Sequence record: PP925834.1
Length of the DNA stretch: 64,000 nt
Reading direction: 5' to 3' (one strand)
Source of the DNA: Escherichia phage MiataMamis
Below the pieces are notes generated by a model, which did no database searches, was not told where the DNA came from, and saw only the letters and a program-made list of their open reading frames with translations. A program made the position numbers and the translations under genes. Positions 1 to 2,029 of the stretch are shown here, piece after piece (the first letter of the stretch is position 1; the number at the start of each line of letters is the position of its first letter).

Positions 1-1532
1 CGCACACGGTCATAATCTTGCTGGTAGATGTTACTCATCTGCCCCAGCCAACAACTTCCACGTTGGATATCACCCTCATAAGGGATGCAGTGTTTAATCT
101 TCCGGAACTCTGCCTTAGTAATACGCTCACGGCGGAAGTAACCATCCTTCTCAAGTTTTTTAACCCAATAGCCTGGCTCATAACGAGTTTTTGTTTCACC
201 TTTCTTGACAGGTCGGCGAGGGAGCTCTGATAACAATTTGACCGTATCTGCAAAGAACGGGTGGTGTGCCGCTTCTTTAAACTCTTCCACCAGATCCGTG
301 TTACGGCAATAGAAAACGTTGCGTCCGGTGATCTCGCTTAAGTAGTTACACTTATTTCGGTTATATTTGCCGTCTCCGTCGTTAAATACAAGGTATACAC
401 CTCGTAAGAACTCCGACTTTCCGTAACGAGCATAGCCTATGCGGCCTTTATTTAAGCCGCCAGCGAAAATTTCACAATCACCTAAGTCGCCAAGCCCTGT
501 TTCTTCCCAACGGTTCCACATAAAGTTTTTGCCGAAGATGTGTCCGAACACCCCACTATTCTTCATCATTTCACGTGCTTCTGCGGAGGTTTTTGCCGTC
601 TCCAGTTCTGCAACAACTTCTGCCCCGCGAAGACGTATACCTTCTTTGACAAAGGCCTCCAGGCGATCCTGGAATCCACCGTCGTCATGGCCCTCTATGG
701 TCCATTCACGCCCAGGGTTAATATTACAATCCCCAATAGGAATTTCCACGCAGATTGCAGGGTAATCGGTCAATGTCTCCAGGAACTTAGAGCGGTAAGG
801 TTGGTGACCCATCACAACACGGCTCTCATCAGAACTGGTATAACCTTTCAGGATGGTCATTTTCCAGCCATCCTTCTCGTAACGATACTGTGCCTCAACC
901 TTGTCACCTTCTAACATCTTACTGGTCATGGGATCGGTGACGGTGAACGGAAACTTTGCATAGCGTAAGCACGATGCAATAGCAGTGCGATATTTCAGGA
1001 CATGCTCTTTCTTAACATGGAACTGAACTTTTACCCCATTATGCTCTTCAGTCTTCCGCTCGCGGATCTTGGTAACGTTTGGGATGCCTTGATCCAAGAA
1101 CAATAGATATGTGCTCTCCACACCATTGTGCACACTGATTACATCGAAAGTGTCCACCATGCTGAACGGAGCCTTTGAACCAACACCTTTATTGCCAACC
1201 AGAGCGTTGCTGTTGCGCTTGGTTGACTCACCGAGGTTCATGAAGGTGTTGCGGACCATCTCTTCTGACATGCCCAATCCAACGTCCTGCACAAAGAAGT
1301 ACGGTTCAAGGTCTGTAGGAGAGTGAATGATGATCGGTACATCACCCCGTCCAGACTCAACATGAGAGTCCACGGCATTGAAGATTGGTTCACGGCAACT
1401 TGCCAGCACCTTGTCTTCGTAAATCCCTTTAATGATTAGCCCAAAAGTCTCTTTGTTCAGAGAAATTGAGCCCCTGGTGACCTCCATATTCCCGGTTAGT
1501 ACCGCTTTAGTTTCATTACTGTTTACGATCAT
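1..1532 (-). CDS. GHKL-type (Hsp90/GyrB/MutL-like) ATPase domain protein, partial (3' end beyond window edge)
   Basis: Open frame from ATG at 1532-1530 to position 1 with no stop (not in ORF track because truncated). N-terminal motifs read directly: N-box EPIFNAVDSH, G1 box VQDVGLGMS, G2 box GNKGVGSKAPF. ATG overlaps stop of upstream gene (ATGA). Confidence 0.6.
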   Translation of the reverse strand, partial: MIVNSNETKAVLTGNMEVTRGSISLNKETFGLIIKGIYEDKVLASCREPIFNAVDSHVESGRGDVPIIIHSPTDLEPYFFVQDVGLGMSEEMVRNTFMNLGESTKRNSNALVGNKGVGSKAPFSMVDTFDVISVHNGVESTYLLFLDQGIPNVTKIRERKTEEHNGVKVQFHVKKEHVLKYRTAIASCLRYAKFPFTVTDPMTSKMLEGDKVEAQYRYEKDGWKMTILKGYTSSDESRVVMGHQPYRSKFLETLTDYPAICVEIPIGDCNINPGREWTIEGHDDGGFQDRLEAFVKEGIRLRGAEVVAELETAKTSAEAREMMKNSGVFGHIFGKNFMWNRWEETGLGDLGDCEIFAGGLNKGRIGYARYGKSEFLRGVYLVFNDGDGKYNRNKCNYLSEITGRNVFYCRNTDLVEEFKEAAHHPFFADTVKLLSELPRRPVKKGETKTRYEPGYWVKKLEKDGYFRRERITKAEFRKIKHCIPYEGDIQRGSCWLGQMSNIYQQDYDRV

Positions 1533-2029
1533 TTATTGCGCTCCTTGTAGTAGATATGGCTCCCGAATTGAGCTGTCCTCTGCATCTTTTTTGCCCATTT
1601 CGGTCGTACTTTGGTTGTATGGTAGTGTGTTGCTCCACCTGTTATATCCATAGCCATGTATGCAACATGGTTGTTATTATAGACCTTTAGAAGCATCTTT
1701 GCAAGACTTTTAGCGTGATCCCATGAATCTTTTTCTGTCACCTTAAAAGTTTTGCCGTAGTTTGTCCACGAAAACTGATTAGGTTGGTAGACAATCTTTC
1801 TTATAGTGTCTGGGTATTTGGGATGAGATTTCCTGTTTAGGGTGGCAAACCCAGATGCCAGCATACCCATCGTGCCATCCCCTCTAGCTTCCCTGTAGAT
1901 ATTGCATGCTAGAATGTTTTCCTTAGTATCTGATGGCTTGCAAGTATGGTATACTTTTTGTTTTGGTGCTGCAACAACAGGCAGCGATAAAAATGCGCTC
2001 AAAATAATAGCAAAGATCTTAATTTTCAC
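1529..2029 (-). CDS. secreted SleB-like (Hydrolase_2 family) cell-wall hydrolase, candidate endolysin
   Basis: 166 aa; GTG start with GGAG SD; N-terminal signal peptide MKIKIFAIILSAFLSLPVVAAP; NIYREARGDG motif resembling SleB/CwlJ hydrolases. Confidence 0.6.
   Translation of the reverse strand: MKIKIFAIILSAFLSLPVVAAPKQKVYHTCKPSDTKENILACNIYREARGDGTMGMLASGFATLNRKSHPKYPDTIRKIVYQPNQFSWTNYGKTFKVTEKDSWDHAKSLAKMLLKVYNNNHVAYMAMDITGGATHYHTTKVRPKWAKKMQRTAQFGSHIYYKERNK

Follow-up and report, generated by a model that had tools for sequence, protein, structure and literature searches.

Sequence analysis of an rIIA gene that overlaps a SleB/CwlJ-like hydrolase gene in Escherichia phage MiataMamis

Gene content of the locus

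We analyzed a 64,000-nucleotide (nt) stretch of Escherichia phage MiataMamis (PP925834.1), the whole of which we call the window, and focused on two overlapping genes at its left end. All coordinates refer to the window, and the genes of interest all lie on the minus strand. On sequence evidence, the large protein that runs off the window edge is rIIA, and the gene that precedes it encodes a SleB/CwlJ-like cell-wall hydrolase. Both genes are already known: they have been annotated since rV5 was deposited and are found in more than 100 sequenced phages, and thus do not represent a new system, variant or member. Because both occur in every E. coli phage of the rV5-like group (Vequintavirus) and are discussed in the literature, we regard the finding as ordinary. 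The sequence details given in the initial annotation are all confirmed.

rIIA is one of the oldest known phage genes. In the window it is open for 510 codons, from 1532 to position 3, and the full-length protein in relatives has 660 amino acids (aa); the initial annotation had correctly anticipated that it continues past the edge. The fragment matched PHROG 612 ('RIIA lysis inhibitor') with an E-value of 2.3e-113 (residues 1-498 on profile positions 1-538 of 725). It is identical at 509 of 510 residues to rIIA of Escherichia phage vB_EcoM-Pr121LW, and this full-length relative (99% identical, 660 aa) matched the same profile almost end to end (E 1.4e-123, residues 1-656 on positions 1-722 of 725). 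A BLASTP comparison with rIIA of T4 (NC_000866) gave an E-value of 5e-21 and 28% identity over residues 1-198, starting from Met1 in both proteins and keeping ExxxNxxD, DxGxGMS and GxxGxGSKxPFS in register. The gene after rIIA in Pr121LW matches the rIIB family (PHROG 609, E 2.3e-60), with no Pfam domain over threshold, and is followed by a gene for a Dda/PIF1-like helicase. The same order is seen in rV5, where an "rIIB protector" (ORF 238; ORF, open reading frame) and then a helicase lie past rIIA. Genes of PF26926 (Phage_T4_rIIB) also follow more distant rIIA homologues in precomputed tables, and DNA methyltransferases and the helicase are found downstream in annotated relatives.

The initial annotation had described the protein as a GHKL ATPase away from any topoisomerase context, and the domain searches agree with this. 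In the 660-aa relative, Pfam detected HATPase_c_3 only, with no Toprim, GyrB C-terminal, DNA-binding or nuclease domain. An NCBIfam scan left rIIB without a match and rIIA with sub-threshold ones only, to sacsin, Hsp90 and BbrUII-type GHKL models. On the Pfam result we rejected a type II topoisomerase ATPase subunit (GyrB, ParE or T4 gp39), which is also at odds with the rIIB and helicase neighbours. The further remark that such an ATPase is unusual in a phage early region did not survive, because the protein is the rIIA annotated in rV5 and about 100 close relatives.

The hydrolase, 166 codons from a GTG start, belongs to the family that had been proposed for it from the sequence. It matched Pfam Hydrolase_2 (PF07486) with 69.5 bits against a gathering cutoff of 27 (E 4e-19, residues 51-161 on profile positions 2-100 of 100), and it also matched PHROG 938 (E 3.6e-27) and the sequences of SleB catalytic domains in the PDB (4f55, E 4e-6; 4fet, E 3e-5). 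By tblastn, the domain occurs in phages of many host genera, 1335 records in all.

To place the locus, we compared window positions 1-4000 with deposited phage genomes by megablast. This region matched 121 records at 90-99% identity, 111 of them with at least 80% query coverage; for more than 100 genomes the identity is 97-99%. Pr121LW was the top match (99.0%), and rV5 (DQ832317) matched at 97.6%. All of the classified matches examined were Vequintavirus (rV5-like myoviruses), and the features of the matching records over this region were labelled rIIA, cell wall hydrolase/SleB and MoxR ATPase. The sequence thus identifies the source as an rV5-like E. coli myovirus (Vequintavirus). In the rV5 record our two genes are ORF 1 (rIIA, ABI79072) and ORF 2 (SleB, ABI79074). 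The overlap between the hydrolase stop and the next ATG, which had been noticed from the sequence, is an ATGA (Table 1), and the records of rV5, Pr121LW and the Vequintavirus Bas54 show the identical 4-nt overlap.

Table 1. Positions of the features at the left end of the window
Feature	Position	Strand	Evidence or remark
rIIA gene, first 510 of about 660 codons	1..1532	-	C-terminal 150 codons and rIIB lie past the window edge
GHKL (Bergerat) ATP-binding motifs I-III of rIIA	1176..1391	-	E48xxxN52xxD55, D83xGxG87, G113xxGxG118
ATGA overlap	1529..1532	-	rIIA ATG (1532-1530) on hydrolase TGA stop (1531-1529)
rIIA Shine-Dalgarno AGGAG	1545-1541	-	8 nt upstream of the rIIA ATG
SleB/CwlJ-like single-domain cell-wall hydrolase gene, 166 aa, GTG start	1529..2029	-	Pfam, PHROG and PDB sequence matches
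Predicted Sec signal peptide, hydrolase residues 1-20, MKIKIFAIILSAFLSLPVVA/A (slash, predicted cleavage)	1970..2029	-	hydrophobicity scan, -3/-1 rule, homologues
Codon of Glu47, predicted catalytic (Y-R-E-A-R-G-D)	1889..1891	-	alignment to 4f55/4fet and phage homologues
Hydrolase ribosome-binding site GGAG	2035..2038	-	5 nt before the GTG
Intrinsic-terminator-like hairpin CCCCGC-TTCG-GCGGGG and T tract	2040..2065 (hairpin 2065-2050)	-	consensus match
126-aa conserved protein (rV5 ORF 3)	2078..2458	-	PHROG 12370, E 9e-89; rV5/Pr121LW annotation
MoxR-like AAA+ ATPase (rV5 ORF 4), first gene of the operon segment	2468..3652	-	PHROG 1297, E 1e-110
Promoter-like site, sigma-70-type, corresponding to rV5 'P4'	3875-3847	-	upstream of the MoxR-like gene

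Both genes sit in a replication-side transcription unit with a sigma-70 promoter, which bears out the early-type placement that had been suggested. As a separate observation on this unit, a 2025 preprint describes the Bas54 ortholog of the MoxR-like ATPase (bas54_0063) as an anti-defence gene that is required to overcome 'DS-28', a predicted system of E. coli CFE311; transposon insertion counts fall from 148.7 to 0.

The ATPase module of rIIA

The three Bergerat-fold motifs that had been read in the large protein are all present. Motif I (E48-PIF-N52-AV-D55) lies at 1368-1391, motif II (D83-VGLG87-MS) has its D83-G87 at 1272-1286, and motif III (G113-NKGVG118-S) has its G113-G118 at 1179-1196. 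Pfam HATPase_c_3 matched residues 50-147 with 35.5 bits against a cutoff of 25; like the PF07486 match of the hydrolase, this is far stronger than chance would give. Together with the modelled fold, the motifs and this family-level match place rIIA in the GHKL/Bergerat superfamily. A search for rIIA homologues returned 32 proteins, of which 30 were aligned. E48, N52, D55, D83, G85, G87, G113, G116 and G118 were invariant in all 30, and so were K105, R275 and E276. Judged from the sequence, rIIA retains an intact catalytic Glu, Mg-binding Asn and glycine lid.

The structural neighbours of the rIIA model are ATPases of the GHL class (Table 2). Because the aligned length far exceeds a bare Bergerat domain, the N-terminal ~290 residues would comprise both the ATPase and a transducer-like domain, and they model as a module of the Hsp90/MutL/MORC/topoisomerase-ATPase class. 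Proteins of the gyrase/Hsp90/MutL/MORC class are ATP-driven dimerising clamps, and the model suggests that rIIA may likewise be such a clamp.

Table 2. Structural neighbours of the rIIA model
Neighbour	Score	Aligned length
TRAP1/Hsp90	17.5	291
ParE 43 kDa	16.1	264
Phage T6 topoisomerase II ATPase domain	15.7	261
MORC2	15.6	259
Topo VI-B	15.4	287
MutL N-terminal domain	15.1	246
Histidine-kinase CA domains	6-7	about 100

A PDB sequence search with the full-length protein as the query returned no solved rIIA structure; the best match was TRAP1 (E 0.095). The joining of an N-terminal GHKL ATPase to a variable C-terminal region in rIIA has already been described (PMC7824862), and the C-terminal region is lineage-specific. 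We found no transmembrane-grade hydrophobic segment in rIIA or in the neighbours of the hydrolase, and one marginal segment in rIIB.

The putatively exported hydrolase and its link to rIIA

The initial annotation had given the hydrolase a Sec signal, and this prediction is supported by manual rules (hydrophobicity and the -3/-1 rule) and by conservation. The N-terminus reads MKIK-IFAIILSAFLSL-PVVA/A, with a positive n-region, a 12-residue h-region, Pro at -4 and V-x-A at -3/-1. This segment is the sole strongly hydrophobic stretch of the protein (KD15 up to 2.6), and an alternative cleavage site one residue further on has Pro at +1. Comparable signal peptides with AXA-type sites occur in a Klebsiella relative, Cronobacter phage CR8, a phAPEC8-like phage and two T5-like phages, all of which also keep E47. 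The paper on Certrevirus CB7 likewise reports a signal peptide on its homolog CB7_83, along with homologs in all genera of the Vequintavirinae (PMC7344957). We infer from these features that the hydrolase is probably exported by Sec and cleaved after Ala20. The mature protein would be basic (26 K+R against 10 D+E), and a Cys pair (C30/C42 in the window protein) that is kept in the four myovirus proteins of the alignment is compatible with a periplasmic disulfide. By the same manual rules we rejected a signal-anchor-release (SAR) endolysin, whose uncleaved N-terminal transmembrane domain is weakly hydrophobic and rich in Gly/Ala: the h-region IFAIILSAFLSL lacks Gly, is highly hydrophobic and is followed by a canonical signal peptidase I site, P-V-V-A/A.

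SleB acts as a lytic transglycosylase, an activity that requires the Glu of its GESRGE motif (PMC12331253). In our alignment, Glu47 (Y-R-E-A-R-G-D) of the hydrolase falls on this Glu of GESRGE in 4f55 and 4fet, and it is invariant in six aligned phage homologues. The alignment makes a lytic transglycosylase that uses Glu47 the most likely chemistry. Spore SleB proper (the TIGR02869 equivalog) was rejected, with a score of 47 bits against a cutoff of 236.5 and a match limited to the C-terminal catalytic part of the profile (positions 83-201). Because of this low equivalog score, and because it has no N-terminal peptidoglycan-binding domain, the hydrolase is not a strict SleB ortholog. The muramic-delta-lactam substrate would not apply to it either, since the host is Gram-negative and has no spore cortex.

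The overlap would couple translation of rIIA to that of the preceding hydrolase gene. The overlap, the GTG start and the upstream hairpin are kept within Vequintavirus, and the hairpin is identical in rV5, Pr121LW and Bas54. Outside the genus the linkage dissolves. A metagenomic relative whose rIIA is 57% identical has MoxR, gp3, rIIA, rIIB and helicase genes, with no hydrolase in the 10-kb rII locus retrieved from it. For a distant rIIA homolog (30% identity) we found rIIB and no hydrolase nearby; the search for hydrolase absence covered these two loci (L012 and L013). Certrevirus phages have the hydrolase gene and lack rIIA/B, and in phAPEC8-like and T5-like phages the hydrolase lies in unrelated contexts. 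In the Klebsiella relative (hydrolase 52% identical), an ORF of 51 aa with two transmembrane (TM) segments separates the hydrolase gene from rIIA. We therefore rejected a conserved SleB-rIIA functional unit and interpret the coupling as lineage-specific synteny rather than a two-gene system.

We also note that the Klebsiella locus (vB_Kpn_K54_rec4, PQ569690, 3501-4191) is incompletely annotated. Its deposited 'endolysin' coding sequence (3648-4031) lacks the N-terminal part of the protein: read from a TTG further upstream, at 3501, the ORF codes for a signal peptide resembling that of the window hydrolase. The 51-aa ORF before rIIA, with its two hydrophobic segments, is a holin-like candidate.

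The terminator-like hairpin (six GC pairs, a TTCG loop and a T tract) lies within the 48 nt that separate the 126-aa gene from the ribosome-binding site of the hydrolase, and the rV5 record does not mark it. Because it precedes the hydrolase gene, the hydrolase and the rII genes would be reached only by read-through. The hydrolase orthologs of Cronobacter phage CR8 and the Klebsiella relative are also preceded by analogous hairpins, making three genera in all. Three myovirus lineages likewise have non-ATG starts: the gene begins with GTG here and with TTG in both the Klebsiella relative and the phAPEC8-like phage. The hairpin together with the GTG start suggests a low dose of the hydrolase, and the combination of hairpin and non-ATG start may serve to limit the dose of a potentially toxic exported muralytic enzyme.

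Proposed function and comparison with known systems

The hydrolase had been put forward as a candidate secreted endolysin, which is probably wrong. In rV5, lysis was assigned to gp89, a Phage_lysozyme-family protein encoded elsewhere, and to a separate putative holin (PMC3606486); the gp89-type lysin gene of rV5 is located outside the region covered by the window. A transposon-sequencing essentiality map is available for the Vequintavirus Bas54/MaxBurger (10.1101/2025.11.20.689424), whose hydrolase is 99% identical to ours (164 of 166 residues) and whose rIIA is identical at 500 of 510 residues over the fragment. In this map insertions hit 32 of 36 TA sites in bas54_0065 (SleB-like), 90 of 101 in bas54_0066 (rIIA) and 56 of 59 in bas54_0067 (rIIB), all classed as non-essential, and 0 of 24 in bas54_0202 (the GH24 endolysin), classed as essential. 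Because bas54_0065 is dispensable and bas54_0202 is essential, the SleB-like enzyme is no substitute for the lysozyme, and plaques form on K-12 without it. The main endolysin is thus probably the separate GH24 lysozyme and not the hydrolase. The same data show, for an ortholog 98% identical to ours, that rIIA is dispensable on laboratory K-12 (10.1101/2025.11.20.689424).

Taken as a whole, we are confident that the locus is the left end of an rV5-like replication-side operon, with rIIA, an accessory SleB-like hydrolase and simple translational coupling between them. The operon would run from the MoxR-like ATPase through the 126-aa protein, the terminator-like hairpin, the SleB-like hydrolase and rIIA to the off-window rIIB and the Dda-like helicase. 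T4 depends on its rIIA/B only if the host has RexAB, and RIIB itself is sensed by a bacterial gasdermin system. By analogy with T4, rIIA and rIIB may form an accessory ATP-dependent pair for counter-defence or membrane integrity, which would keep the infected cell energised against membrane-depolarising abortive infection such as that of lambda RexAB. The hydrolase would act as an accessory periplasmic muralytic enzyme at low dose.

Several points weigh against this reading. Export, cleavage and lytic-transglycosylase chemistry of the hydrolase are predictions from its sequence alone, several phage papers label the SleB-like enzyme an amidase, and the hairpin, a consensus match, is a putative terminator only. 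For the middle and C-terminal regions of rIIA, the structural comparison yielded nothing interpretable. The proposed part in counter-defence is carried over from T-even phages on the strength of 28% identity that covers the ATPase domain only, and our literature search found no experiment with Vequintavirus rIIA/B against RexAB or another defence system. It is also possible that the hydrolase is a redundant or condition-specific lysin that makes a real contribution to lysis despite being dispensable on K-12.

Among the alternatives, the SleB-like enzyme might be a dedicated envelope-conflict factor, for instance one that remodels peptidoglycan early against superinfecting phages or envelope-based defence. 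Its placement beside rIIA/B, which are classical anti-defence genes, and beside the MoxR ATPase, whose ortholog bas54_0063 is reported to be anti-defence, would reflect that role. An operon with a sigma-70 promoter, holin-independent export, dispensability on K-12 and variable presence are also typical of accessory conflict genes. We nevertheless consider this role unlikely: it has no direct evidence, the adjacency to rII is not conserved, and bas54_0065 showed no significant depletion of insertions in the clinical-isolate resampling rows that we retrieved (log2 fold change -0.88, q 1.0). Rather unlikely, too, is a version in which the hydrolase has no part in lysis but, made in small amounts from the sigma-70-promoter operon, remodels periplasmic peptidoglycan in conflicts with other phages or with host defences, for instance by excluding superinfecting phages or by neutralising a defence that senses the envelope, and forms an envelope-protection module with the coupled rIIA/rIIB.

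The SleB-like protein could instead be a holin-independent, Sec-secreted endolysin that accumulates in the periplasm and lyses the cell at the end of infection. This would fit the canonical signal peptide and the basic mature protein, and PHROG 938 and many GenBank records label its homologues 'endolysin'. Expression of the CB7 homolog is toxic to E. coli, and CR3_087 has reportedly been linked to lysis (PMC7344957). A small holin-like ORF with two TM segments follows the hydrolase gene in Certrevirus and in the Klebsiella relative, but none does so in the window, where we found no small transmembrane ORF at or inside the hydrolase/rIIA junction. Given the tolerance of the Bas54 ortholog to insertions, the lysis function that the rV5 authors give to gp89, the position behind a sigma-70-type promoter in a replication-side unit rather than in a late lysis cassette, and the missing hydrolase in the metagenomic rII locus with otherwise kept neighbours, we find this alternative quite improbable.

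Finally, the ATPase could be a new MORC/paraMORC- or topoisomerase-like GHKL enzyme that acts on DNA and is functionally unrelated to classical rII, in keeping with structural neighbours that include MORC2/3, MutL, Topo VI-B and ParE, with the helicase and DNA methyltransferases downstream and with one review that treats rIIB as a possible transcription factor (PMC7824862), but this is very hard to reconcile with the end-to-end rIIA profile match, the direct match to T4 rIIA, the rIIB gene immediately next to it, the lack of a detected Toprim, DNA-binding or nuclease domain, and a top structural match to Hsp90/TRAP1 in a fold class that does not single out DNA enzymes because all GHL-class proteins score alike.

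Elsewhere in the window, within the tRNA cluster, a tRNA-like gene of 97 nt (61681-61777, minus strand) lies between tRNA-Thr and tRNA-Ser. It scores 37.5 bits with the Rfam tRNA model (gathering cutoff 29), and ARAGORN reports it as 'tRNA-???' with a 4-base anticodon. It folds into a cloverleaf with an extra variable-region hairpin of ~26 nt, an anticodon stem of 4-5 bp and the loop UUUUUAA. The gene is unannotated in rV5, and its Bas54 equivalent (97 nt) is tRNA-Lys(UUU), for which the long variable arm is odd. The tRNA at 61522-61596 (minus strand, anticodon CAT) is called tRNA-Met by ARAGORN, and the Bas54 record gives its equivalent as a tRNA-Ile for codon ATA, an assignment that presupposes lysidine modification of the CAT anticodon. 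In rV5 the large terminase gene (58027-60872) is annotated as three segments to be joined, with an HNH homing endonuclease gene breaking it up. Judged only by the coordinate offset from rV5, the equivalent locus is expected at about 57,500-60,500 of the window, on the minus strand.

The remaining interest of the locus is general: the mechanism of rIIA/rIIB, a question of 70 years, and the role of the widespread signal-peptide-bearing SleB/CwlJ-like hydrolases in phages of Gram-negative bacteria. To these our analysis adds two points, namely that the N-terminal half of rIIA models as a GHL-class ATPase-plus-transducer module and that the published essentiality data argue for an accessory hydrolase rather than an endolysin.

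Compared with its closest relatives, the locus is nearly unchanged. The rV5, Pr121LW and Bas54 orthologs share the gene order, the 4-nt overlap, the GTG start and the hairpin, at 96.5-98.5% DNA and 98-99% protein identity and with point substitutions only. The Pr121LW hydrolase is annotated as shorter, with its start at codon 10 (TTG), so that half of the signal peptide would be lost. Like the SleB and CwlJ proteins of Bacillus, the hydrolase belongs to the Hydrolase_2 family and has its predicted catalytic Glu in an E-x-R-G motif. It differs from Bacillus SleB in carrying a Sec signal in place of the SleB prepeptide context, and its architecture is nearer to that of single-domain CwlJ than to that of SleB.

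Like T4 rIIA (NP_049616), rIIA of this lineage has GHKL motifs I-III in its N-terminal part, precedes rIIB and can be dispensed with on standard hosts. The identity of 28% is confined to the first ~200 residues, whereas the C-terminal halves are unalignable. The protein has 660 aa in this lineage against 725 aa in T4, and topoisomerase genes lie upstream of rIIA in T4, in contrast to the SleB-like hydrolase here. The GHL-class modules (Hsp90/TRAP1, MutL, MORC and type II topoisomerase ATPases) share 10-16% sequence identity with rIIA, which lacks the Toprim, MutL C-terminal, CW and Hsp90 middle/C-terminal domains and whose remaining ~370 residues are specific to rIIA.

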